The notes beneath the pieces are model-generated. The model was given only the letters and a program-made list of their open reading frames with translations. It ran no database searches and was not told where the DNA came from. Below, piece by piece: positions 7,462 through 51,977 of a stretch of DNA of 64,000 nucleotides (positions are counted from its first letter, which is position 1; every line of letters begins with the position of its first letter). A program made the position numbers and the translations under genes. Source of the DNA: Picochlorum sp. SENEW3 (taxonomy: Eukaryota); the NCBI GenBank assembly GCA_034226945.1, contig CP120463.1, forward strand, positions 868,001 through 932,000, given 5' to 3'.

Positions 7462-7644
7462 ATATGTGCTGATGCGATAGTTGACCAGAGATGTGTGCCC
7501 TGGATCTCCTGCCACATCTTGACAACATGCGATTTGTCCCAGATCAAAAAAAAAAAAAAAATCATTGTAACAATGTAACAACTCTCCTTAAAAAAAATTG
7601 CTATGAAGAGCATCATACTTTGCTGAGAAACTCTTTTCTCGCAA

Positions 7645-8408
7645 ATGAGATGCCCAGTGTGCAGGACACAGACAGTGATGGTTCCTCAATGCAGGCACCA
7701 GAGGACTCAGCCATGTCTTGGCTGATGGATGAGGACGAGGATGGAGAAGACACAGCCTCGATTGGCGAGGCCAGCAGCAGCCAGCCACAGATCCCGTTGT
7801 GGCAACGTGTAGGCAGATTTTTACATCGAGTGCTCGGCAAGCACTTTCAGAACATTCGTGATAAGGTGACCCAGCGCAGAGGGTCACCCCCGGTCCGTCC
7901 CAGAGCCAATGCACCGTTTAGTGTAAGGCAGTTCTTTGCTGAAAGGACCACCGCCCCCAGGCTCGGGGCTGTTCACTCCCATGTCGCCGAGGCGGCAGAA
8001 CAGCTCGGAGACAGCGGGGTCTGGTCTGGACGGCCCAGAACAACCAGTCGACGCCAAGGGGTTGGGTGATCCCATCCCGAGGTGTGGGAGTGAGTTTTTA
8101 GTGAGTGCAATCCTCACATGCCTGGAATGGTATCTGGACACCCAGCTGGCGGCCACTGCTCTGTCTCCTGACAGGCACGGGCCACCAGGAAGGAACCACT
8201 TGCAACGTGGGCGCTTCTCATTGACACCCCAAGCTTCCTCAGTCGCACAGGCAGCCGGGTTCCCTCACGAGGAGGCCGCCCACGCAAGCAGCAACTTTGT
8301 GTCGGCCCAGATTTTCTCACTCTCTTGCTTCTTCAGCACACCAAGGGGCGGTCGGATCCGCTGTTCCAGGGCCTTGGCGTGCAGAAAACACGGCTCAAAA
8401 AAAAAAAA
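7645..8408 (+). mobile_element. Non-LTR retrotransposon copy 1, 5'-truncated (752 bp plus poly(A))
   Basis: Near-identical to 12248-12999; ends ...acacggctc followed by poly(A). Confidence 0.95.
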
Positions 8409-8424
8409 TAAAAAAAATCTTTTC

Positions 8425-9473
8425 TCACCAAGTTCTTCGACGACCACCAGCTGCAACGTCGAAGTGACACTGTGTGGACAGCGTGCCTTGGAGGTCTCTC
8501 CACCACTGACGCTGAAATTCTTCAGAAATTTCAGCAAATGTGGGTGGGCACGCCGTTCCCACAGCCAGCCAGGGGGACAGCCCCCCACGTGGAAGGGACT
8601 CCCTCCCAGCCAGCCAGGGAGTCCCACAGGTATGACTTACGATCTACGTCTTCTACTGACCATACTAACAATTTATCTACTCACGTGCGAGGGACGAGCC
8701 CTCCAGATGAGATGCCCAGTGTGCAGGACACAGACAGTGATGGTTCCTCAATGCAGGCACCAGAGGACTCAGCCATGTCTTGGCTGATGGATGAGGACGA
8801 GGATGGAGAAGACACAGCCTCGATTGGCGAGGCCAGCAGCAGCCAGCCACAGATCCCGTTGTGGCAACGTGTAGGCAGATTTTTACATCGAGTGCTCGGC
8901 AAGCACTTTCAGAACATTCGTGATAAGGTGACCCAGCGCAGAGGGTCACCCCCGGTCCGTCCCAGAGCCAATGCACCGTTTAGTGTAAGGCAGTTCTTTG
9001 CTGAAAGGACCACCGCCCCCAGGCTCGGGGCTGTTCACTCCCATGTCGCCGAGGCGGCAGAACAGCTCGGAGACAGCGGGGTCTGGTCTGGACGGCCCAG
9101 AACAACCAGTCGACGCCAAGGGGTTGGGTGATCCCATCCCGAGGTGTGGGAGTGAGTTTTTAGTGAGTGCAATCCTCACATGCCTGGAATGGTATCTGGA
9201 CACCCAGCTGGCGGCCACTGCTCTGTCTCCTGACAGACACGGGCCACCAGGAAGGAACCACTTGCATCGTGGGCGCTTCTCATTGACACCCCAAGCTTCC
9301 TCAGTCGCACAGGCAGCCGGGTTCCCTCACGAGGAGGCCGCCCACGCAAGCAGCAACTTTGTGTCGGCCCAGATTTTCTCACTCTCTTGCTTCTTCAGCA
9401 CACCAAGGGGCGGTCGGATCCGCTGTTCCAGGGCCTTGGCGTGCAGAAAACACGGCTCAAAAAAAAAAAAAAA
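8425..9473 (+). mobile_element. Non-LTR retrotransposon copy 2, 5'-truncated (1034 bp plus poly(A))
   Basis: Near-identical to 11966-12999; same 3' end and poly(A). Confidence 0.95.
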
Positions 9474-9479
9474 CAACGG

Positions 9480-10002
9480 ACCCCCGGTCCGTCCCAGAGC
9501 CAATGCACCGTTTAGTGTAAGGCAGTTCTTTGCTGAAAGGACCACCGCCCCCAGGCTCGGGGCTGTTCACTCCCATGTCGCCGAGGCGGCAGAACAGCTC
9601 GGAGACAGCGGGGTCTGGTCTGGAAGGCCCAGAACAACCAGTCGACGCCAAGGGGTTGGGTGATCCCATCCCGAGGTGTGGGAGTGAGTTTTTAGTGAGT
9701 GCAATCCTCACATGCCTGGAATGGTATCTGGACACCCAGCTGGCGGCCACTGCTCTGTCTCCTGACAGGCACGGGCCACCAGGAAGGAACCACTTGCAAC
9801 GTGGGCGCTTCTCATTGACACCCCAAGCTTCCTCAGTCGCACAGGCAGCCGGGTTCCCTCACGAGGAGGCCGCCCACGCAAGCAGCAACTTTGTGTCGGC
9901 CCAGATTTTCTCACTCTCTTGCTTCTTCAGCACACCAAGGGGCGGTCGGATCCGCTGTTCCAGGGCCTTGGCGTGCAGAAAACACGGCTCAAAAAAAAAA
10001 AA
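9480..10002 (+). mobile_element. Non-LTR retrotransposon copy 3, 5'-truncated (511 bp plus poly(A))
   Basis: Near-identical to 12489-12999; same 3' end and poly(A). Confidence 0.95.
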
Positions 10003-10006
10003 CAAA

Positions 10007-12672
10007 GATGCCATTATAGCCAGCTCGCCACGGATCCAGACAGTCAATCGCTACAATGGTGGGCCGACCACCAGCCCATGGAACAGCAGCCGCCGATTGA
10101 AGCCTTGAATGAAGACATTACATGGGAGGAATTGAATGGTGTCCTGCACCAGCTCAAAACCAGTAAGTGTCCTGGCATGGATGGTCTCCCTAACGAATTC
10201 CTTCGCTTGTGTCGTGTAGATTTGACCTCCAGCTCCCCAGAATCGGCGATGGGCACGGTTTTGCTGCGGACGTGCAACTCGGTATTCTCGGGCAACATCT
10301 CTGATGCCCTGAATACCAGTCTCGTCGTCTCCCTGCCCAAGCCAAACAAGGATTTCACCTACTTGAGCAACAGGAGAGGTATCAGCTTAATCTCCTGCGT
10401 GCTCAAGTTGGTCACGAAAATTGTCGCAAACAGATTCCAACAACATGCAGTCCCAGGCACGGGAGGCCTGCGCAAGGAGCAAGCAGGCTTCCGCCTGCGG
10501 GAAGAGTGCAACGCACAGGCCGCCACCCTCATAGAAATTGCAGGTAGACGGGGTGCAGAAGCGAAGCCGACATATGTCGCCTTCATGGACCTCCAGAAAG
10601 CCTTTGACATGGTCCCACACAATGGCATGCTTCACATCCTCAGAGCCAAAGGAGTCTCAGGTAAGTGCTGGTCTTTCATTCAACGCCTGTATACCAACGG
10701 TACCTTCCGCGTTCTAGTGGGTCCCACAACCTCAGACCTGGCCCCACTAGAACGCGGGGTGCGGCAGGGGGACAGCTTGTCTCCCCTGCTGTTCAACTAT
10801 GTCATGGATTCTTGCCTTGACAATCTGTCAGGAGTTACTGTCCCTGGAATGTCCCAGCGCATTCCAGGGCTCCTCCTGGCAGATGACGCTGTTATTCTTG
10901 CCAATACAGACACGGAGATGAGGGATAATCTGGCAGCCTTTGGGGAGTGGGCGACGTCGTGGCACATGAAGATTGGCCACGACAAATGCGGACTCATGGT
11001 CTTGCACGATCAGCCTGCACACAGCAAAGCCAAAGATTCAGTCTGGCGTACACAAGGGAGTGTTATTCCAGTTGTGGATCAGTATACATACCTGGGACTC
11101 ACCATCGACACAGAGGTATCCACAGCTACCATGGCAGAAGCCAGGGCAGTCACCGGGGCCAAAACGCTCAGCCACTTGGCCCCGTTCCTGGCACACTCCT
11201 CCATCCCAGTGGCGATGAAGAAGATGGTGATCAATGGTATCCTCCTCCCTCAGCTGTGCTATGGTGCAGAAGTCTGGGCAGACAAGCAGTGCAACATTCC
11301 TCCAGTACAGCGCATCCTGAACAATGCTCTCCGCTTGACCACAGTCGGCAGAATGAAGAACAAGCGAGCCATCAGCACCCACATCGTTCACGAGGAACTG
11401 GACATAGCAAATATCAGCGCTATTGCTACGTCCCAAAGGGTACGTGCATGGATCAAATGGCGTCACCTCCATACTTGGATTGCAGATTTCGTCAGAGACC
11501 GCAGCTTCTCTCGGCTCAGCTGGACCCAGCCCTCCAGCAGGATTTTCAGCAAACAGATGGCACGCTTGGGACTCTCGTCTGCAGATGTTGAAGACCTACA
11601 GCCAAAGACGGTGGCTAAGCAAGTGAAAGAGGCATTGAGCAGAGAATACCGGTCCACCAGCACGGCAGCCGCTGGGGGACACTACTTTGCCAACAATATG
11701 CAGAACACGAAGACATACCTGAAGACTAGCACACATCGGGCCACCCCTGTGGACATGCATCGACTTCTTAGGACCAGACTGAACGCGTGGCCAGGCCTGC
11801 TCTACAGATTGTCCAAATGGCACGAAGTATGCCTCTTGCCAGGCTTTGAATGTGTGTGCCCCTCGTGTGACAGCGCCCCGAGGGATGACCTCCACCACAT
11901 TGGCATGGTGTGTCCAGCATTTCAGGAACAGCGAGAAGCCATTCTCAGACCAGCGATAGACGCCATCACCAAGTTCTTCGACGACCACCAGCTGCAACGT
12001 CGAAGTGACACTGTGTGGACAGCGTGCCTTGGAGGTCTCTCCACCACTGACGCTGAAATTCTTCAGAAATTTCAGCAAATGTGGGTGGGCACGCCGTTCC
12101 CACAGCCAGCCAGGGGGACAGCCCCCCACGTGGAAGGGACTCCCTCCCAGCCAGCCAGGGAGTCCCACAGGTATGACTTACGATCTACGTCTTCTACTGA
12201 CCATACTAACAATTTATCTACTCACGTGCGAGGGACGAGCCCTCCAGATGAGATGCCCAGTGTGCAGGACACAGACAGTGATGGTTCCTCAATGCAGGCA
12301 CCAGAGGACTCAGCCATGTCTTGGCTGATGGATGAGGACGAGGATGGAGAAGACACAGCCTCGATTGGCGAGGCCAGCAGCAGCCAGCCACAGATCCCGC
12401 TGTGGCAACGTGTAGGCAGATTTTTACATCGAGTGCTCGGCAAGCACTTTCAGAACATTCGTGATAAGGTGACCCAGCGCAGAGGGTCACCCCCGGTCCG
12501 TCCCAGAGCCAATGCACCGTTTAGTGTAAGGCAGTTCTTTGCTGAAAGGACCACCGCCCCCAGGCTCGGGGCTGTTCACTCCCATGTCGCCGAGGCGGCA
12601 GAACAGCTCGGAGACAGCGGGGTCTGGTCTGGACGGCCCAGAACAACCAGTCGACGCCAAGGGGTTGGGTGA
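10007..12672 (+). CDS. LINE-type reverse transcriptase, N-terminally truncated (RTE/RTEX/L1-like; clade not resolved)
   Basis: KCPGMDG, NRRGISL, EQAGFR, AFMDLQKAFDMVPH, GVRQGDSLSPLLF, LLADD, YTYLG; C-terminal CPSC-x8-H-x4-C zinc knuckle. Confidence 0.9.
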
Positions 12673-13018
12673 TCCCATCCCGAGGTGTGGGAGTGAGTTT
12701 TTAGTGAGTGCAATCCTCACATGCCTGGAATGGTATCTGGACACCCAGCTGGCGGCCACTGCTCTGTCTCCTGACAGGCACGGGCCACCAGGAAGGAACC
12801 ACTTGCATCGTGGGCGCTTCTCATTGACACCCCAAGCTTCCTCAGTCGCACAGGCAGCCGGGTTCCCTCACGAGGAGGCCGCCCACGCAAGCAGCAACTT
12901 TGTGTCGGCCCAGATTTTCTCACTCTCTTGCTTCTTCAGCACACCAAGGGGCGGTCGGATCCGCTGTTCCAGGGCCTTGGCGTGCAGAAAACACGGCTCA
13001 AAAAAAAAAAAAAAAAAA
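10007..13018 (+). mobile_element. Non-LTR retrotransposon copy 4 (about 3 kb, 5'-truncated: RT, CCHC finger, 3' UTR, poly(A))
   Basis: Carries the RT reading frame to the stop at 12672, about 330 bp of 3' UTR and A19; no endonuclease domain upstream, consistent with 5' truncation. Confidence 0.95.
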
Positions 13019-13088
13019 CAAATTAGGTTTTGCGGATAGACTTAGAGCAAAAATTCATTCACGGTATCCCATGTCTCAATCCTGGAAT

Positions 13089-13188
13089 AGCCGGAGGTCG
13101 CCAGTTCGAATCTGGCGGATGGCATCTTCCGTCACAAACAGAGTTAGTGCCATCCTAGCTTAGCCTTGGTTAGAGCGTCGGTTTCATA
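13089..13188 (+). tRNA. Circularly permuted tRNA-Met(CAU): 3' half 13089-13124, 24-nt spacer, 5' half 13149-13188
   Basis: Joined 5'+3' halves give GCCATCC TA GCTT AGCCTTGGTTA GAGC G TCGGT TTCATA|A GCCGG AGGTC GCCAG TTCGAAT CTGGC GGATGGC A: perfect 7-bp acceptor stem, perfect T arm; T6 Pol III terminator at about 13213. Confidence 0.9.
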
Positions 13189-13485
13189 ACAATCAAATGA
13201 CATGTGAGACTCTTTTTTCGTCTGTTTGCCCGTTTCAAAGTATGCAAGCTTCTTTTGGACCAAGTCTACATAGTAAGAAGCGTCTGATGTGGTCACCATG
13301 GATGGGCCGCATTCAACATGGTTGAATTAGGATTAGGAATATGTTCGAAATGTACTATATTTTTGATCGAAACTTTGGATAGAGCGTGGGTTTCATTACA
13401 GACATGAAATGTGATACAGGGCCCTGGACGGTATTTCATGCATTGTACCATCACACATACTTTATTTGTTACATACATCTATATG

Positions 13486-14577
13486 TCATGACACCCGTCG
13501 TCTGCACCACAGAAGGATCCTTTGTTGTACAAACACGAGGAAAGAAAGGACATATCGCAATCCCATTGAGATGGAGGAAAGCAGGGCACAACATGCGTCC
13601 CACCAAACCCAAGGCCATTCTTGGGCGAACAAGAATCGGAAGCCGAAATTAATCATTCGCCTGGTTCTCTTGCCGTGTGGAAACAAGATGTCCAGCACTG
13701 AAAATGCCAACTTGTTCACCTTCCTGGATGCATACCGAGGTCCCCCAGGTTGCGTGAGTGAGTAGATGGTTCCCTGTAAACGAATCCTAGTCGAAGTCCG
13801 GAGCATACCTATGAACTTTCCCACCAATTTCAGCCTGTATAGGTATTGCATACAAGCTTGATCTGCCCTGATGTCTTTAGCAAGGGCATCAACAATTCTA
13901 GCAATCACGAAATCAATCAAATCTTCTCCTCCTTTTTCATTCAACTCGTCCAAAATTCTACTAAATTCGACATCTTCCTGGACGTAATAAGGCATGAAGG
14001 ACACCGATAGACCTGTGAGGTTCTCCTCTACATGCTCATGTGTCAAAACCATCCGCAGAATAAAAGTATACAGAGGCTCAAATGCCATGGATGACGTCTC
14101 CACATCTCCCAGAAAGAGCTGTCGAGCGCCAGATGTTAGAATATTCAAGTGTTTCAGTCGTTCATCAGCCCCCCCTGCATCTGGATGAACCAGTAACCAC
14201 TGATGAAGGAGCAGGGCAAATATTGGAGCTGTGAATGGCTGCCCCCACAGTTTCTTGCATACCGATAATAATTCGTCCCCAGTCGATGGATGGCTCGAGA
14301 AGAATGGTGCCAATACCTCGTACCACCTCGTGTTGGCATCAGACTGGCCGGTGCTTTCGCGAGCAGCTGCATTCAACGTCCCAGTGATATCTGCAAAGAC
14401 CTCGCTGCATACGATATCCCTATCCTCTTTTTGCTCTGCCTGTGTGGCCAGTCCTAGTTTGCGTATAATTTCTTTAGATAAAACTGTTTTTATTTTACAA
14501 TCTGCAGTGCTGTCATCGTTATTGATTTCCCTCTGTTTCCTCTTCGCTGAGGAAGACGGAGAAAACAGGCGTCGCAT
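13486..14577 (-). CDS. Uncharacterised protein
   Basis: 363-aa ORF with globular composition and a hydrophobic C-terminus; no motif I can name. Confidence 0.65.
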   Translation of the reverse strand: MRRLFSPSSSAKRKQREINNDDSTADCKIKTVLSKEIIRKLGLATQAEQKEDRDIVCSEVFADITGTLNAAARESTGQSDANTRWYEVLAPFFSSHPSTGDELLSVCKKLWGQPFTAPIFALLLHQWLLVHPDAGGADERLKHLNILTSGARQLFLGDVETSSMAFEPLYTFILRMVLTHEHVEENLTGLSVSFMPYYVQEDVEFSRILDELNEKGGEDLIDFVIARIVDALAKDIRADQACMQYLYRLKLVGKFIGMLRTSTRIRLQGTIYSLTQPGGPRYASRKVNKLAFSVLDILFPHGKRTRRMINFGFRFLFAQEWPWVWWDACCALLSSISMGLRYVLSFLVFVQQRILLWCRRRVS

Positions 14578-14634
14578 CTATATCGTCGACTGTCGTGCCA
14601 TCCTGTCTGCATTACATTGAATAAATAAATACAA

Positions 14635-16707
14635 CTATCGACTTAATACGTACTCCAACACCTCTTCTCGAATGGCGTAGCACATGTCCAGATGCCCTGC
14701 ATTGAATTCTTTGTATGACACTTCCACCCCAGCATCCTTCATGGCCTTGTAGTGCCGCATGACGTCGGCTTTGTTGATGACACCGTCACGAGATCCTGCT
14801 ACCAAATCGATAGAAATGCCTTGCAAAGCGCCATAATGCTCTGCGACATTCGGTGGTTTGGGCACCCCATACTTTTTCATGTTGACGCTTTTTGATCCAT
14901 AATCGTACATTTCAAACTCTCCAGTTCGAATCAGCTGTATCAGGTGCGCCCCAGTGTGAACCGAAAGTGCTGGCATCGACGCTACGGCATAATGAGGCAT
15001 CTGCAGAGCTCTGTCCCATTCGCTGGAATCTCCGTTGAACAGCAGGCGCAGCGCTGCCCTTGTCAGCTCATTCAATGCTGGAATCTGGTGAAGGTCTGTC
15101 GACAATTTGAATGTGATATAGCGCAGTAACGATGATGGAATATACGCAGGTGCCCCAACCCCAGGCCTATAAGCATTCAAAAATCTCATGATGATTGGCA
15201 AGACATGATAGAAAGGCAGTGCTATGGTTGGGTAATTCTTGTGAAACCCCGCTGGTGTAAGCAAAACCATTTTCGAAATTCGGTGCGGTTGACCCAAGAT
15301 GCCACACATGACGGCGTACATCAGTACAGAGGCGGCTCCTAGAGAATGCGCAACAACCTTCAACCTGTATGGCTGAGAGGAGTCATTCTGAAGAGGCATG
15401 GTTCGTTCATAATACGATGAGGAGGATCCCTTTGTTGCTCGTGTCGGCGTGGTCGTTATTATATTCTTTTTGGGCTTCTCTCTGTCTTTCGAGCTCGAAA
15501 GCCGACGAAAGTCCACCTTCCCTTCCAACGACGTGGGGACGGAAGTTTCTGTGTTCTCTGCACTGAAAAGCTCTGGGTTGCTATTACTCCGACCATGATT
15601 TGCATATTGGGTTCTCCTCCGAGACGCAGTGAGCTCAGATCTCTTTACGGAATCAATCCGCGATATGAGAGCGGTGATATCTTCCATGGCTAATTCATTT
15701 ATGCTGTATGCCCAATACGAGGCTGCCGTCTTCCCTGGCTGTACGTGAGCCCTGGGCGGATTTGCCCGGCAGTTTCCAAGCCACACGTCAGCGCCAGCAT
15801 CATACGCTGCAAAAGCTTGGGATCCTTGAGGCCCATTGCATACCCACCCTAGAGATGTGTCCAGCACGCCATGTTGGAAAAAGACCACCTCCTTTGAGTT
15901 TTTCCTGGGAATCCGCTGCATGGTCAGAATATAGCCATCCCGTGTTTGAACAACGTGCTCTTCCAACGGATACCCAGATTGCAAAATGACATCACTCGGT
16001 GTCCATACATTTAAATCTTCCCATTGTCCGGCTATTCCAAATCTTCGCGAAGACACGTTTTTCGCATCCACTTTGCCAATAAGAACAAACTGAATGAGGC
16101 CTCTCAATGCTGCAAATACGATTTCCACACCGAGCTCCAACCACACCTTGACAGACTCAAGAAGACCTCGTCGCTCCATTCTCTCCGAGACTCCAAATCC
16201 GTAAGGTCTCTCGAACAAGTCACTCCCGCTGCGCCTCATCCCATGTTTTTCTGGCCCTTTCCTTCTCCCCCTCAAGACATCCAAGTCCCACCACCATGAA
16301 GAAGGGTCGCGACTCTGATAGAGAGCCTGCTCTGGCATTGAGGCGCTTTTAATCATTCCCCTCTGTTCTATTACAGCATTCAAGGTGCTGTTTGTTCCAT
16401 TCTGCGCCCAGAAACTGCTCCATGCCTCAGACCTCCTCTTCCTCCTTGGGGACGTCTTTTTCTTCCCATAAAAACCTCTGTCGATGAACAAGGCCACAAA
16501 GACCAGAGCCACACCGTTGATAACCCTACCGAAAAAGGAGAATGTCTCACGAATCGCTGCCTTGGTACTCTCCTCTGCTGTCGTCATGATGTTATCGACA
16601 ACCCACTGGGCAAAGGGGGAAATGAACACTGCGTGAACCCAGTGGAAGAGTATCAGAGCGGCCCATACTGGCACCCCTGCAGCTCTTTGAATGGACTGTA
16701 AACCCAT
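14635..16707 (-). CDS. Alpha/beta-hydrolase lipase (acid lipase / sterol esterase family)
   Basis: GYPLEEHVVQTRDGYILTMQRIP, FFQHGVLD, DVWLGNCR, VVAHSLG, GHLD. Confidence 0.85.
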   Translation of the reverse strand: MGLQSIQRAAGVPVWAALILFHWVHAVFISPFAQWVVDNIMTTAEESTKAAIRETFSFFGRVINGVALVFVALFIDRGFYGKKKTSPRRKRRSEAWSSFWAQNGTNSTLNAVIEQRGMIKSASMPEQALYQSRDPSSWWWDLDVLRGRRKGPEKHGMRRSGSDLFERPYGFGVSERMERRGLLESVKVWLELGVEIVFAALRGLIQFVLIGKVDAKNVSSRRFGIAGQWEDLNVWTPSDVILQSGYPLEEHVVQTRDGYILTMQRIPRKNSKEVVFFQHGVLDTSLGWVCNGPQGSQAFAAYDAGADVWLGNCRANPPRAHVQPGKTAASYWAYSINELAMEDITALISRIDSVKRSELTASRRRTQYANHGRSNSNPELFSAENTETSVPTSLEGKVDFRRLSSSKDREKPKKNIITTTPTRATKGSSSSYYERTMPLQNDSSQPYRLKVVAHSLGAASVLMYAVMCGILGQPHRISKMVLLTPAGFHKNYPTIALPFYHVLPIIMRFLNAYRPGVGAPAYIPSSLLRYITFKLSTDLHQIPALNELTRAALRLLFNGDSSEWDRALQMPHYAVASMPALSVHTGAHLIQLIRTGEFEMYDYGSKSVNMKKYGVPKPPNVAEHYGALQGISIDLVAGSRDGVINKADVMRHYKAMKDAGVEVSYKEFNAGHLDMCYAIREEVLEYVLSR

Positions 16708-18029: not shown

Positions 18030-19511
18030 TCAGTGCGTCTTCCATCCATACGGCAGCTCATTGTGGGTCAAATCTTTGATTGCCCCCAATCCCTGTGGAT
18101 GGTCTCCAGGATTTGCAAGCCGTAAGCTGAGACTCCGCACTGTCTCCACAGATGACGACAAACGCTCTAAAAGATTCACGAGCGCTATGACTTCGTTTCT
18201 TTCCAGGATCAGGTTATTCGTTCCTGGAGACCCCGAGCATGTTTCTGACGAAAACAGGATTTTTAAAGATGTTGCAATTCCCAGAAACTGTAATTTGCCC
18301 CACATCTTGCACTTCTCGCACCCAACACAGTCCATGGCGCGAGTGATATTCTGGAATGACGCTTGCAAATCTTGTTTCAACTCGTCAGCTCCTTTCCCTT
18401 TCCAGAGACGGCCTTCATCAAAGGGAACAGGACACGAATGCCGAAGATCCTTATTGTCCACCAACATTGTCATCAGCTTTTGTGTGTGTTGATCTTCTTT
18501 CGGGTACCCAGTATCATAGCTGACATTTTTTAGGATTGGACTAGCTTTGACTACCGCACGCAAGACGAACAAGTACGTGAAGTACAAGTTCTCAACTCGC
18601 TCCTTGACATCTGGATTTCCTAATCTGGCTTCAAACATTTCCAGGTTGGGGCCCCATGTCTGTGTTGCCTCATCAATTAGATAGTCACCCACAATATGTG
18701 CGGTAATTGAGGAGTGGATGCCAGATATCAGCCGATAAAACACTTTTTTCTCGTCCGGTACATCTTCGTCATGGATTCCCTCAAAGCACTTTTGCTCGTA
18801 TATAGCCTTCCATACCCTGTTCGCGTGCTCGCCCTTGTATCCAGTATATCTTTCTCCATTTCGAAGAAGATTCACGTATGTGTATTCATAACCGTTCTCC
18901 TCAGGCATCCAGGGATTCATGTACCCCTTCCAGTCTTTCACTTCGAGCAATTTCGTCTTAATATCCGGCAAAATCGTCCTATCAACATGCGATTCCTGCT
19001 CAACTTCATCACACGATTCTCCTTCCTTCCATGGCTTTGGAACCTCATCTGACTCGCATTCGCATACTGAGCAGTCTTTCAGAGAGCACATGCCATCATC
19101 TGGCCACAGTGGACATTCACAATACAAGTCAGTTTTAAAATACCTGAAAAACGGTGTCTGGACCAACTCCTGCAAGATCGACTTCATACTGTTTAAATTC
19201 ATCCTCTCCACCGCAGCATATGAGCAGCAGCAGTGAGGGACGAATCCTTCCAACTGACAAGCAGCCTTCTGCTCCCACATGGAGGGGTCCACGACGTTGC
19301 CCCCGCACGTGCAAGAATCTGCACCGTTCACCGCAGTATCCTGTCGACGAGGAATTGGAATCTTTTCTGAAATTTTCTTAAGAAATTCATTGTGTTTCAA
19401 GACATCCGCCACAGCATGCTGAGCCTTTTCGAACAAGAAAATGTTGTTCAACGACAAAAAGATGGCTGCGAGAGCCACAAGAGCATGCAGATAGCCATTA
19501 AGTTTTATCAT
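18030..19511 (-). CDS. ERO1: Endoplasmic reticulum oxidoreductin 1
   Basis: FFRYFK..L..ECPLW, NGERYTGY, RLISGIHSSI, MDCVGCEKCKMWGKLQ; signal peptide. Confidence 0.95.
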   Translation of the reverse strand: MIKLNGYLHALVALAAIFLSLNNIFLFEKAQHAVADVLKHNEFLKKISEKIPIPRRQDTAVNGADSCTCGGNVVDPSMWEQKAACQLEGFVPHCCCSYAAVERMNLNSMKSILQELVQTPFFRYFKTDLYCECPLWPDDGMCSLKDCSVCECESDEVPKPWKEGESCDEVEQESHVDRTILPDIKTKLLEVKDWKGYMNPWMPEENGYEYTYVNLLRNGERYTGYKGEHANRVWKAIYEQKCFEGIHDEDVPDEKKVFYRLISGIHSSITAHIVGDYLIDEATQTWGPNLEMFEARLGNPDVKERVENLYFTYLFVLRAVVKASPILKNVSYDTGYPKEDQHTQKLMTMLVDNKDLRHSCPVPFDEGRLWKGKGADELKQDLQASFQNITRAMDCVGCEKCKMWGKLQFLGIATSLKILFSSETCSGSPGTNNLILERNEVIALVNLLERLSSSVETVRSLSLRLANPGDHPQGLGAIKDLTHNELPYGWKTH

Positions 19512-43964: not shown

Positions 43965-46829
43965 ATGCCCCAGCCTCAGCCACCTATTGGTGGTAAACAA
44001 ATGCTTCTGGACAAGAATACGAAACTGAGTGCTCAAGTGGCAACGCAGCGAAAGGAAATCAATGATTTGAAGGACAGACTGCATAATTTAGAAAACGAAG
44101 AAATAAAATGGAAGGATACAGCTGCTTGTCTGACGTCTGTATGGGACGAGTTGAACTCATCGCTTGGCTTTTTGCAATTCAAGTACGTGGCCGTCTATTA
44201 TGGTGTCTTCTTGCTGATTCTTCCTTCATTGTTTACATATGTTTATTCAGAGTCAATGAGAGTGCCGAGGTTGCACCCGCTGGGTTGGATGCGTCTTCTG
44301 CGAAAGCTCTTCTGGAGGAGACGAATCCTTTCCTGGCCCATCTCCTTTCTAGGTACTTGCCAGACGATCCTGTGGCGGCCAAGTCGGCCAAGAACCTGGC
44401 AGATGATTTATCTGAGACGGAGAAGGCGCTTCGAAATAAAATGAAGGACACAATGGCCGTGGCTTCGTCCATTTTGAATGCTATAGAGGAAATGAAAGGA
44501 GCAGGGATTGGTGGAGGCAGCCTTCCTGGCTTTGAAGAATCCAAGCTGGCAGCTCTTGTGAATATATTAAAGTCTGAGAATGGCAAATTGGTGAAGGATT
44601 CCCTGTCGGACTCGATAGCGATCAGGCAGCTGGAGGCAGACATTGCTGATAAGGAAGCAGAGATACAAGTGCTGCATCGCAAGCTCATGATGGAGAAGAG
44701 TGTCGACAGGGGTGGAGGGGATGTGGGCGTGTCTCGGTCGGAAGAGGCCCCAGAGGGCATGAGCAAAGGGGTGTCTCGGAATGGGTCTGAGCAGAAATTA
44801 GTATTGGACCAAAAGGATGAGGCTGCACCTCAGGTGGAGGCTCTCAAGAAAGAGGTGGAGAAGAGGGATGGAGACATTGCTCGTTTGGAGAGGTATGTGT
44901 TTCTTGCAAAATGTCTAAAAAGTAGTGCCGAAGTCTGGCGCGCTAATCCACTGCGCTAAGGCGACAGAACGAGATGAACTCGTTCTCGCATAGTACCTCT
45001 ATGAAAGAGGTCAGACTATATGACCCTCCCTGTCACGGGAGTCTAGAAACCGGAATCTAGGACGATTTTACTGTCCTAAACACGGAATTTCGCCATCGCC
45101 TGCGGGGATCGAACCCGCGACCTCCAGATGACATCTGGGCGCCTTGGCGGCATAGTGCAAATAAAGAATTTTTTTTTGCTTGGATCCATGGGTGGTTGTG
45201 CGGCGCGTCGTTACATCATGTCGTTCGTCTTGTTCTTGCAGTGAATTATACACGCTGAGGCGTGAGATGGACGCAGTGTCCGAGAATACAAAGATACAGG
45301 TCGCGCAGCGCCAAGAAAAACTGGACCTGCTGACTGAAGATGTGGAAAGGGTGAAGCAAAAATTGAAAGATTCCTATAGAGAGCAAGATCGCCTGAATTC
45401 CAAGTTGCGGGATGCAGTGCGGGATCTTGAAAAAGGTCAAAGAGCTCTCAGACGTGAATCCAGGCTGGAACATGCAATATCGGAGCTGGAGGCACAGGTG
45501 AAGCGCCTTAGGACAGAGCGGAATGAGGCTGAAAGACAGTTGCAGGAATGCAAGCACAATGATTCCTCTCAGACTCGAGATGAGTTGCTTCAACAAATGC
45601 AGGGAATGGAAACAGAGATGAAGATGCTGAAATATGCGGTTTCAAAGCACCAAAAGGCTGCCGAGGTTGTGGAGGAAGCAGACAAGCTCAAGTCTGCCCA
45701 TGAGGTGGAGATTGCAGAGTATAGATCCCGGGTTGCTGACATGAATAAGCAGGTGAGCGCTTCGATGGTGAAACTCAACGATTGGATTCAAAAGTATGTG
45801 GATCAAACAAAGGTCAATGAAGAGCTCCGCTGCTTCCTGGAATTGTCCCAGGAGTATCTGGGAAAACATGAGACAATGGAGGCTAGCATCAGGGATGCCA
45901 TACACGAGTACCTGAAAACGCAGATGTCGTCTTTGGAAAATCGGTTCACAGCAGCGATGAAAGAGTCGCGTTCAGAGAGAGAAAGACAGATGACTCAAGA
46001 GATCAATGAGCTTCGGAATGAGCTCGAGGGCATCAAGGGAAAGCAGGCAGGCTTGCTTTCAGAGGTTGAAAAGGTCCGTTCTGAGAAGGCAAATTTGATG
46101 ATCGAGGCAGATACGTTTTGGAAGGAAATGGATAGTGTCAGTGAGGCTTATGAAGCTTCGCGAGATCAAAATACAAAACTGCTGTCTGCCATGTCCAAGA
46201 GAGATGAGGACAATGCCAGACTTCTGAGTGAAGCAGCTGCTGCAGCTAGAGACAAAACAATCATGGAGGAGGATAGGGATATGGCGCAAAGAATGATGAA
46301 GCCTATGGAACAAAAAGCACAAGATGCGGAAGAAAGAGCGAAAGAAATAGAAGAAAGGTTTGATCGATTATCTAAAGAGCGAGATGTCTACAGGACAGAT
46401 GTGCAGCACTCGAAGGAGCAAATAGAGTCTTTACAGAGCGAGGCCAAAGCTTTGAGAATTTCCATGGATGCATTAAGATCCGAATTATCGAACGCAAAGA
46501 AAGATATCGTGATGATAGAAGCTGACAAAGCAAAGCATTTGGCAGCATTGAAGTCTGAGAAAACAAGAGCTGATAGGGCAGAGAGGATTCTGTCAGGTAG
46601 AAAAGACCTGAAACTACAAGCGGGCGAAGAAGCGGAGAGGGAGGTACTGAGAAAGATGGTTAATTGCAGTGTCTGCTCGACACGTTTGAAAGATCGTATC
46701 ATCACCAAATGCAATCATTTGTTCTGTTCTGCATGCATTGATGTCAACTTGTCCAGCAGGCACAGAAAGTGCCCTGGCTGTGGAGAAAAATTTGGCGTGG
46801 GCGATGTGAAACCATTTTATTTTACATAA
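43965..46829 (+). CDS. HUB1: Histone H2B ubiquitin ligase BRE1/HUB-like
   Basis: Exons 43965-44182, 44251-44892, 45242-46829 splice in frame; long coiled coil and terminal RING CSVC..KCNHLFCSAC...RHRKCPGC...F...DV. Confidence 0.85.
44928..45129 (-). tRNA. Circularly permuted tRNA-Arg(UCG): 3' half 45129-45094, 128-nt spacer, 5' half 44965-44928
   Basis: Joined halves give GTCGCCT TA GCGC AGTGGATTA GCGC G CCAGA CTTCGG|A TCTGG AGGTC GCGGG TTCGATC CCCGC AGGCGAT G: all four stems pair; TTTTT terminator 6 nt after the 5' half (44921-44917). Confidence 0.92.
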
Positions 46830-49800: not shown

Positions 49801-50956
49801 CTTCGATAGAGATGACGCAGCAATCGCAGACCCCATAGGCCCATCCCCTGGGGAGCCTTGCGGCGAGAACTGGGGTGGATCTAGAAACATTGGCTCGTGG
49901 CCTTGATTCGTCGATCCACCATTAGGCTTCCTCAATGCTGAAGATGCGCTTGGAACATTAATGCCACTCTTGGATGGAGACGAGCGCTTCTGGGATGGTG
50001 CACTTTTGTGATGTGGGGCCGTGCTTGGCGTAGGCACCTCGGTGCTCTCTACCTTCTGGCCAGACACAACCCTGCACTCTTCCTCAGTTCGCCTGTCCTG
50101 GACAGATTTTACCACAAAAGGATGATTCATTATTTCTGGCCAGTCAAGCCTTCTGTTAGGATCCTTTTCCAGCAAACCCTTTAGGAAAGACTTGAACGGT
50201 CCAGACATGCTGGACGGATATACTGGTGGATCGTGAACAATCTGCTTGATCAACGCATAAATTGACGACGTATAGAATGGAGGCTTCCCAACGAAGAGCT
50301 CATACAGGATGACACCCAATGACCACAAATCGACAGCATGGGTGTATGGCTTTTCCTGGACCAACTCTGGGGCCATGTACAGGGGAGTCCCTTTAATGGA
50401 GGTCAGCACGACTGTATTCTGTGACATGGCTCTTGCAAAACCAAAGTCACACAGCTTCACCGTTCCATCCGCCGCGATAAGGATATTCTGTGGCTTCATG
50501 TCTCTATGGATGATTCTATTTGAATGTAGATAGTGCAATGCATCCACCAACTGCCCAGCCAATGTCTGGACCACCTCCTCAGACAGACTGGTATCCGTCT
50601 CCAAAATCTCAAAGAGCTCACCTGCAATCAAATCATGGTCATGATATTCTTCCATGACGCCAACCAGGCATGGCATACGTACCTTGAGCAAATTCTGTCA
50701 CCACACAGAAATCACTGCCAGTCTCAAACGCGTCAATCATCTCAATGATATTCCGATGCCGTAATTTTCGCAGTATATCAATCTCCTGTCGAAGCCCTCG
50801 TATATCCTTGTCCTTTTTTCCCCTCTTGGGAATGAGTTTAATCGCCACCGTCCGTAAGTCGCCCACCTTCCGGGCCTTCCACACCTTGCCAAAAGAGCCC
50901 TCACCAACAAGCTCCAAGAGCTTGTACTCCCCGACCAGAGCCTTTTCTCCAGACAT
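46847..50956 (-). CDS. TIO: FUSED/TIO-type Ser/Thr kinase with C-terminal ARM repeats
   Basis: [81 protein letters not shown]; two introns. Confidence 0.9.
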
Positions 50957-51383
50957 CTATCAGGTATTGTGTAATTCTATGTTGACATAAATCGCCCCTA
51001 TCTATCGGTAAAAAAAGCCACAACGTCACCACCCGAGTTGCAGTTAGAGTAACAGCGTCTTATTGTTTCTCTCTTTCAAGCCTATGGACCTTCTCCAGCA
51101 TACAAAATCATTTTTTCATTCATTAAATCATTATATACAGATGATTGTGACTCTATGGGTCGTTCTTCCGGCTGAATACAAGCATTAATAAAAAGACACA
51201 GCCATGTGCTGACTCGAACATCTCCCATCCAGTACATCTGTTGATAGGCACAAAGACCGCATCTCAAAATAGTCTCGGCAAGGCGCATGCCCTTTTTCCG
51301 ATTGGTGACACGACGTATTGCCCATAATGGCATGATAAATAATTGGATAGCAGCAAGGGCATCTCTCCTCGGAAGATATCTCG

Positions 51384-51977
51384 ATGGGGACCAGCCCTGC
51401 AGATGCAACGTCGTCATCCTCAGAGGATGACGAAGAATACGCCAAATTTGCATCCGTTGCTGTGAATGCAGAAGATGTAAGACGGGAGAGCGTGTCAATT
51501 CGGGGCAAGGGGGTTTCGGATGGTGGTGCGGTTCCAGAAGGGGTTGCTACAACCGTCTCAGAGGCCCTGTGGAAAAAGTTGGATGCGGGAATAGAATTCG
51601 GAACCATCAACGAGGACTCTAATCCTTCATGCTCGACACATCATGATACACAGGGCCCTAGTAGAGTGGAGAGCAGCCCAGGGCTGCGTTTGTTTCGAAG
51701 GGGACCCACCGTCAAAGGTGACTGTACTCCTCGGAAGGAAACCACGAGACACACTGCGCGCACGGAGAGCATACTTCCAAGAAAAAGGCAAATAGACCAT
51801 GAAGGAATATTAATCAGTGATATAGAGCCTCTTATTGTGCTCGGGCAGGATATCATGGTGGGCAGGCAGAGACAAAACCCACCTCCCAGTGTGGACATCC
51901 CCAAGGCCAAGAAACGGCGGATGCTCCGTAATTTTGAACTATATAACACTCCTATTGACGTAGAGGAATATTCATAA
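51384..51977 (+). CDS. Small low-complexity protein (possibly CUSTOS-like)
   Basis: 197-aa ORF with SSSEDDEE...FASVAV, GLRLFRR and a basic C-terminus; family assignment tentative. Confidence 0.45.
   Translation: MGTSPADATSSSSEDDEEYAKFASVAVNAEDVRRESVSIRGKGVSDGGAVPEGVATTVSEALWKKLDAGIEFGTINEDSNPSCSTHHDTQGPSRVESSPGLRLFRRGPTVKGDCTPRKETTRHTARTESILPRKRQIDHEGILISDIEPLIVLGQDIMVGRQRQNPPPSVDIPKAKKRRMLRNFELYNTPIDVEEYS

Follow-up and report, generated by a model that had tools for sequence, protein, structure and literature searches.

Two stretches that look like the halves of one tRNA lie next to each other in the window (the whole 64-kb stretch of DNA that was analysed), the 3′ half ahead of the 5′ half. 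Does this locus hold a gene whose halves are put back in order at the RNA level, or is it the leftover of a duplication, the source of another kind of RNA or an error of assembly? A first-pass annotation, made from the letters of the DNA, had proposed a circularly permuted tRNA-Met(CAU) gene. Our analysis leads to the same reading, to which we give a probability of about 0.85: the locus would be a circularly permuted type II (37/38) nuclear elongator tRNA-Met(CAU) gene of Picochlorum. This layout is rare yet already known, and the Met gene is a real, intact-looking type II gene and not a new kind.

The window is gene-dense eukaryotic DNA with a G+C content of about 48%. The ORF encoding ERO1 (18030-19511) matches a protein from the transcriptome of Picochlorum oklahomense (taxon 249345) along its entire length at 99% identity, the next matches being at 74-75%, followed by Nannochloris (66%) and Chlorella (59-64%). 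The identity of this ERO1 protein thus indicates that the host belongs to Picochlorum (Trebouxiophyceae).

Anatomy of two permuted tRNA genes

Standard scanners miss the Met gene, as had been anticipated: in the unrearranged 64-kb window, ARAGORN detected no tRNA and no Rfam family was found at gathering thresholds. With introns allowed, ARAGORN reported a tRNA-Leu(gag) with a 1274-nt intron at 50175-51547, inside a kinase ORF, which is probably a false positive.

The permuted order and the coordinates proposed in the first-pass annotation (13089-13124, a spacer of 24 nt, 13149-13188) are all correct against the sequence (Table 1). From its start, the 3′ half comprises A38, the 3′ strand of the anticodon stem, a variable region of 5 nt (AGGTC), the T arm with a 5-bp stem and the loop TTCGAAT, the 3′ strand of the acceptor stem and A73. 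The 5′ half continues with the 5′ strand of the acceptor stem, U8 and a D arm that contains G18G19, followed by the 5′ strand of the anticodon stem, U33, CAU and A37. The proposal that the halves form a complete cloverleaf was borne out as well, since their in silico join, 76 nt in length, is accepted by ARAGORN as tRNA-Met(cat), with 7/7 pairs in the acceptor stem and 5/5 in the T stem. The joined sequence displays U8, A14, G15:C48, G18G19, U33, T54-T55-C56, A58, G53:C61 and A73, to be compared with the eukaryotic consensus list of U8, R15:Y48, G18G19, U33 and U54U55C56 (PMC3978253, section 4). A73 is followed by TCT, so that the 3′ CCA is unencoded, as is typical of eukaryotes. Eukaryotic initiator tRNA-Met is characterized by A1:U72, A54 and A60. 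The Met gene has T60, together with G1:C72 and T54, and the latter two features make it an elongator type and not an initiator, for which the sequence A54U55C56 is stated (PMC3978253, section 4).

The arrangement is not a product of chance. When segments of 36 and 40 nt separated by a gap of 24 nt were joined at every offset on both strands, only 15 of the 127,800 joins matched in ARAGORN, every one of them an offset of the Met locus. A wider scan, in which the window was cut every 2 nt and the 62-nt flanks were swapped, with an intron allowed, gave 36 matches among 63,876 rearrangements, 30 at the Met locus and six near position 45,068. Finally, we scanned both strands for acceptor hairpins, taking every 7-nt pairing with at least six pairs and a gap of at most 300 nt (531,865 candidates); the candidates passing the end filters correspond to exactly two loci, Met and a minus-strand tRNA-Arg(UCG), with the rearrangement scans being sensitive to 37/38 junctions only, such that permuted genes with their break in the D or T loop would escape. 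An exact pattern of T loop, acceptor, spacer and 5′ start had no match in metagenome_contigs, and a 22-nt piece of the Met 5′ half had none in metagenome_contigs, genome_contigs and viral_contigs.

The Arg gene, absent from the first-pass annotation, is located in unique sequence 32 kb from the Met gene; its neighbours are a coiled-coil ORF and a RING-finger gene, with no retroelement nearby. Its joined halves (74 nt) are identified by ARAGORN as tRNA-Arg(tcg), all stems being Watson-Crick except for G1.U72, with G37 and G73 present; G73 is followed by GCG, CCA again being unencoded. Both joins thus form cloverleaves that ARAGORN accepts, the elements being read from its output. The second gene is alike in build: in both, the two halves share a strand with the 3′ half ahead of the 5′ half, a spacer links position 73 to position 1, as in type II genes, the junction is at 37/38 and there are no introns. 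An Rfam tRNA match covering the Arg leader and 3′ half (14.8 bits, E 3) is not significant.

Table 1. Features of the two permuted tRNA genes and of their surroundings (positions in the window).
Feature	Positions	Strand	Basis
Four head-to-tail, 5′-truncated LINE-like retroelement copies, ~100% identical	7640..13019	+	RVT_1 domain, repeats
A/T-rich motif AAAAATTCATT, candidate Pol III upstream promoter element, 40 nt before Met 3′ half	13049..13059	+	
Met leader strand GTCTCA of distal leader-trailer helix	13073..13078	+	complement of 13205-13210
Met leader TGGA (splice-site helix, partner positions 32-35) and AT of bulge	13083..13088	+	sequence
tRNA-Met(CAU) 3′ half, positions 38-73, CCA unencoded	13089..13124	+	sequence, ARAGORN join, offset scan
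Met intervening sequence, 24 nt	13125..13148	+	sequence; no T run of 4 or more
tRNA-Met(CAU) 5′ half, positions 1-37, anticodon CAT at 13185-13187	13149..13188	+	sequence, ARAGORN
Met trailer, including leader-pairing TGAGAC (13205-13210)	13189..13212	+	sequence, precursor fold, contigs of other runs
T6 run, candidate Pol III terminator	13213..13218	+	sole run of 4 or more T within 13060-13225
Relic: partial copy from D loop to position 37, with trailer	13374..13418	+	local alignment score 53, reached by 0/2000 shuffles
T5, candidate terminator, 6 nt past position 37 of Arg gene	44917..44921	-	sequence
tRNA-Arg(UCG) 5′ half, positions 1-37	44928..44965	-	ARAGORN on join
Arg intervening sequence, 128 nt, structured	44966..45093	-	no T run of 4 or more
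tRNA-Arg(UCG) 3′ half, positions 38-73	45094..45129	-	rearrangement scans
Same A/T-rich motif, AAAAATTCTTT, 44 nt before Arg 3′ half	45163..45173	-	

Splice junction, transcription signals and proposed maturation

The first-pass annotation had noticed that the leader TGGA (13083-13086) can pair with positions 32-35. This helix is present and consists of three Watson-Crick pairs and one G.U pair with TTCA (13183-13186). It places the predicted 3′ splice site, between 13088 and 13089, inside a 3-nt bulge, AUA, after its second nucleotide, and the 5′ splice site inside the opposite bulge, U36-A37-A, after A37. A13086, at position -3, pairs with the opposite U32, which we take to be the anticodon-intron pair used by eukaryotic endonucleases. 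Such pairs are named A.I pairs in PMC3978253 (section 8). The Arg junction helix, formed by GAUG and CUUC, has a central U.U mismatch in its 4 bp, and C32 pairs with G at -3. The annotation had further described the site as a BHB/BHL geometry for 37/38 cleavage; its junction, splice-site helix and 3-nt bulge hold, and the strict BHB does not, because there is a gap between the bulge and the outer helix, trailer and leader being unpaired beside the bulge. Both the Met and the Arg genes present a relaxed hBH at 37/38, the form that is the rule for green-algal permuted tRNA genes (PMC3978253).

Further out, the complementarity of GTCTCA (13073-13078) with TGAGAC (13205-13210) and the T6 run at 13213-13218 are found just as described in the first-pass annotation. 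The predicted fold of the Met precursor (-46.4 kcal/mol, z -2.08, with 3/200 shuffles as good, a modest margin) includes the T arm, an acceptor hairpin that closes the spacer, the D arm, the anticodon stem and a leader-trailer helix, for which the thermodynamic fold favours an overlapping register, CAUGUC/GACAUG, over GTCTCA/TGAGAC. For the joined sequences, the minimum free energy (MFE) folds are not cloverleaves: the MFE is -33.6 vs -27.3 kcal/mol for the cloverleaf in Met, and -34.1 vs -29.5 kcal/mol in Arg, placing the cloverleaf within 5-6 kcal/mol of the MFE.

In permuted genes the A box comes after the B box, and such genes need an upstream element rich in A/T (PMC3978253, section 5). 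The consensus AAAAATTCNTT has only two matches on both strands of the window, one ahead of each permuted gene in the correct orientation, for an expected count of 0.33, and two matches occurred in 1/100 shuffles. Being selected after both genes had been seen, AAAAATTCNTT is to be taken as a lead only, a candidate promoter that agrees with the published view of an upstream A/T-rich element. The other three matches of the pattern CAAAAATTC (30886, 56631 and 58779) have nothing tRNA-like downstream. A related sequence, AGAAAATTC, is present at the equivalent place in another Met copy, in run X10. Downstream, the T6 (Met) and T5 (Arg) runs are preceded by no run of four or more T inside either unit.

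Maturation of the Met tRNA most likely involves a circular intermediate, as in its relatives, by analogy with the pathway of Cyanidioschyzon and Mamiellophyceae (Soma, 2014; PMC3978253, sections 5, 6 and 8). RNA polymerase III would start at the upstream A/T-rich element and produce a single RNA comprising the leader, the 3′ half, the 24-nt intervening sequence, the 5′ half and the trailer, stopping at T6. The two halves would then pair to form the anticodon stem, while the leader TGGA, bound to positions 32-35, would create the hBH, with both splice sites in 3-nt bulges and the U32-A anticodon-intron pair, and the distal GUCUCA/UGAGAC helix would clamp leader and trailer together. The tRNA-splicing endonuclease would cut after position 37 and before position 38, and a ligase would close the circle. 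Transcription of the Met gene, each of these processing steps and the function of the product in translation are predicted from this analogy.

Independent contigs, decayed copies and alternative explanations

The Met core is present in independent data sets. Parts of the region 13020-16700 occur in public runs (20 of 24 listed, from nine studies), the RNA-labelled ones (X15-X20) containing small shares only. We compared four of the runs with the locus, as contigs (X5, X9, X10 and X11). A 104-nt contig of X5, a gut metagenome, covers 13089-13192 in the permuted order with no differences. The same order is found in a contig of X10 covering 13071-13192 (five differences, low depth of 4.1) and in one of X11 covering 13089-13169 (three differences, low depth of 3.3). 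Contigs of these three runs pass from the 5′ half into the trailer up to 13192, with no break at 13189/13190, a weak hint that the genome may lack a conventional gene for this tRNA. The X9 contigs do not cover the Met core, a gap that carries no evidential weight, and the same applies to the lack of cover of 13021-13073 in X9, X10 and X11 (depth 0-0.23).

Contigs end at 13089 and at 13192, and their loose ends carry other leaders and trailers, from which it follows that the Met core recurs with different flanks, be it in paralogues, haplotypes or strains. Two other Met copies, with otherwise different flanks, retain GTCTC/GAGAC, and a T run is also present. In one other copy TGAA replaces TGGA, the pairing with UUCA being retained as the G.U pair becomes A-U. 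The preservation of the leader-trailer pairing, the T run and the splice-site helix amid variable flanks supports the processing structure proposed above and rules out an assembly artefact.

Decayed copies exist as well. A partial 5′ half with its trailer is located 190 nt downstream of the Met gene (the relic of Table 1), preceded by T-rich sequence, and similar truncated versions are present at the syntenic position in three other runs. Contigs of X9, X10 and X11, syntenic with the window downstream, diverge from it before 13168-13172, are T-rich and then share only the part from the D loop to position 37 and the trailer. Other strains or haplotypes may therefore hold only a truncated fragment here. 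We rejected the interpretation of 13286-13418 as a decayed copy of the whole unit, the upstream part of the alignment being equalled by 1777/2000 shuffles.

The truncated copies at and near the locus indicate that it does decay and rearrange, and they speak for a first alternative, in which the Met locus is a non-functional leftover of a tandemly duplicated, intron-containing tRNA-Met gene, combining the 3′ half of copy 1 with the 5′ half of copy 2 and being unexpressed or unprocessed. In O. lucimarinus, the permuted tRNA-Cys gene is followed downstream by an additional 5′ half, which has been interpreted as the trace of a tandem duplication (PMC3978253, section 10). No fossils of such an event were detected above shuffles when leaders were compared with their own 5′ halves and trailers with their own 3′ halves (shuffles as good, of 2000: 573 for the Arg leader, 911 for the Met leader, 1167 for the Met trailer and 2000 for the Arg trailer). 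A leftover would not explain why both Met halves are intact, with all stems paired and all universal tRNA positions present, nor why the core shows no difference over 104 nt in X5, versus at least 24 differences among runs in the 200 nt downstream. Copies whose flanks differ still have the splice-site helix, the -3 pair, the clamp helix and the terminator, and an unrelated gene, Arg, is built alike and has the upstream motif too. We thus regard the leftover explanation as unlikely, and retain that of an intact permuted gene.

A second alternative, which we find highly improbable, is that the locus specifies a non-decoding tRNA-like RNA, either a YrlA-type Y-RNA-like module or a tRNA-derived SINE tied to the adjacent LINE array. 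The tRNA-like part of YrlA runs in the order T arm, acceptor and D arm, and lacks an anticodon arm. This shared order accounts for YrlA (RF02553) being the only Rfam match to the Met locus at relaxed thresholds, with 22.7 bits (E 0.023), a score far below the gathering score of 69. YrlA, a Y-RNA-like RNA with a permuted tRNA-like domain, is bacterial according to the description of the Rfam family, whereas the Met locus is eukaryotic and its joined halves yield a complete anticodon arm with U33 and CAU. As for a SINE, the LINE-like array does end 69 nt before the Met 3′ half. Its copies terminate in poly(A) tracts of 12-20 nt, at 8416, 9478, 10010 and 13019, and the array could result from successive insertions into a single site, with its own tail or a Pol III gene as a possible target. 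However, neither poly(A) nor a target duplication flanks the Met unit, and the Arg gene has no such element beside it.

That the Met halves were swapped by an assembly error, as the adjoining repeat array and the repetition of the core in the genome might invite one to suspect, has a negligible probability, since contigs from three of the four runs compared have the permuted order and the Arg gene, also permuted, lies in unique sequence.

Relation to known permuted tRNA genes

The 2014 catalogue comprises 34 permuted genes: 11 in C. merolae, 19 in Ostreococcus and Micromonas, two in the Bigelowiella nucleomorph and two in Thermofilum pendens (PMC3978253). Elongator Met and Arg(UCG) are both absent from its table (PMC3978253, Table 1), in which intervening sequences range from 1 to 74 nt, and green-algal permuted genes are almost all of type II. 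The closest counterparts of the Picochlorum genes are those of the Mamiellophyceae and of the Bigelowiella nucleomorph (Maruyama et al., 2010, listed in PMC3978253), with which they share the order of 3′ half, spacer and 5′ half, the hBH at 37/38, an AT-rich upstream region, a downstream T stretch and an unencoded CCA. The intervening sequences of green-algal type II genes, which have an hBH at 37/38, measure 5-64 nt (PMC3978253, Table 1 and section 8), a range that includes the 24 nt of the Met gene. The present genes differ in their host, a core chlorophyte, and in being known from sequence alone. Those of Cyanidioschyzon merolae, a red alga (Soma et al., 2007, via PMC3978253), resemble them in the presumed circular-intermediate route and in an upstream promoter, in Picochlorum a candidate one, and T stretch, and the table lists type II members in this species, one of them with a 24-nt intervening sequence. 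In contrast to the plain type II pair of Picochlorum, C. merolae genes also have junctions at 20/21, 50/51 and 59/60, often with extra introns.

The first-pass annotation had assumed a different algal lineage and asked for a check of novelty. The Trebouxiophyceae, indicated by the ERO1 protein, are indeed outside the lineages that it listed, but the step is smaller than it supposed, because permuted genes of another trebouxiophyte, Auxenochlorella, were published in 2025. According to the available excerpts of that work, the tRNAscan-SE set of strain UTEX 250-A was incomplete and permuted genes were then found (Plant Cell, 2025; PMC12633428), with tRNA-Pro(UGG) given as an example (PMC12633428; PMC12636532, legend of supplementary Fig. 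S1). As far as these excerpts go, Auxenochlorella is similar to Picochlorum in being a trebouxiophyte with a streamlined genome, and differs in genus and in its example, Pro(UGG). A review from 2026 that deals with photosynthetic eukaryotes names, in the part available to us, no species other than O. tauri, C. merolae and B. natans (PMC13578239). We found no report of permuted tRNA genes in Picochlorum in literature searches covering this genus, Trebouxiophyceae and Chlorella. New details are Picochlorum as host genus, both tRNA species, the Arg spacer of 128 nt, the common upstream motif and the neighbouring LINE array. A second trebouxiophyte genus and two tRNA species beyond the 2014 catalogue thereby gain permuted genes, and a candidate promoter motif can be offered for Pol III genes with reversed A and B boxes.

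Picochlorum species are fast-growing biotechnology algae. A set of 24 nuclear tRNAs is probably too few for reading all codons. The excerpted Table 1 of PMC6141220 gives 42 nuclear tRNAs for P. costavermella and 24 for strain SE3, and the tRNAs of Picochlorum genomes were annotated with tRNAscan-SE, according to extracts of two genome papers (PMC6141220, PMC11092101). The presence of two permuted tRNA genes and no conventional one in 64 kb suggests that the layout is common in the Picochlorum genome, and permuted genes may fill gaps in the tRNA set, including elongator Met.

A bolder extension, which we hold to be rather unlikely as a whole, is that a sizeable share of Picochlorum nuclear tRNAs are permuted, driven by AAAAATTCWTT ~40 nt upstream and spread by LINE reverse transcription. 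If true, it would account for the short tRNAscan counts published for Picochlorum. Permuted or circular pre-tRNAs reverse-transcribed by the abutting LINE would then represent the 'RT origin' model (PMC3978253) in action, and, among strains, the truncated copies and the differences in flanks would be marks left by such movement.

The intervening sequence of the Arg gene, at 128 nt, is the longest among those listed, exceeding the 74-nt maximum of the 2014 catalogue. A tRNA-Met(cat) with a 15-nt 'intron', obtained with a 5′-half candidate in this spacer, is regarded as spurious, its D arm being poor and its acceptor containing a mismatch. The spacer contains, on the minus strand, an 8-bp hairpin directly before Arg position 1 (about 44967-44987) and, at 44995-45009, a 5-bp hairpin with a 7-nt loop, TTTCATA, that resembles an anticodon arm.
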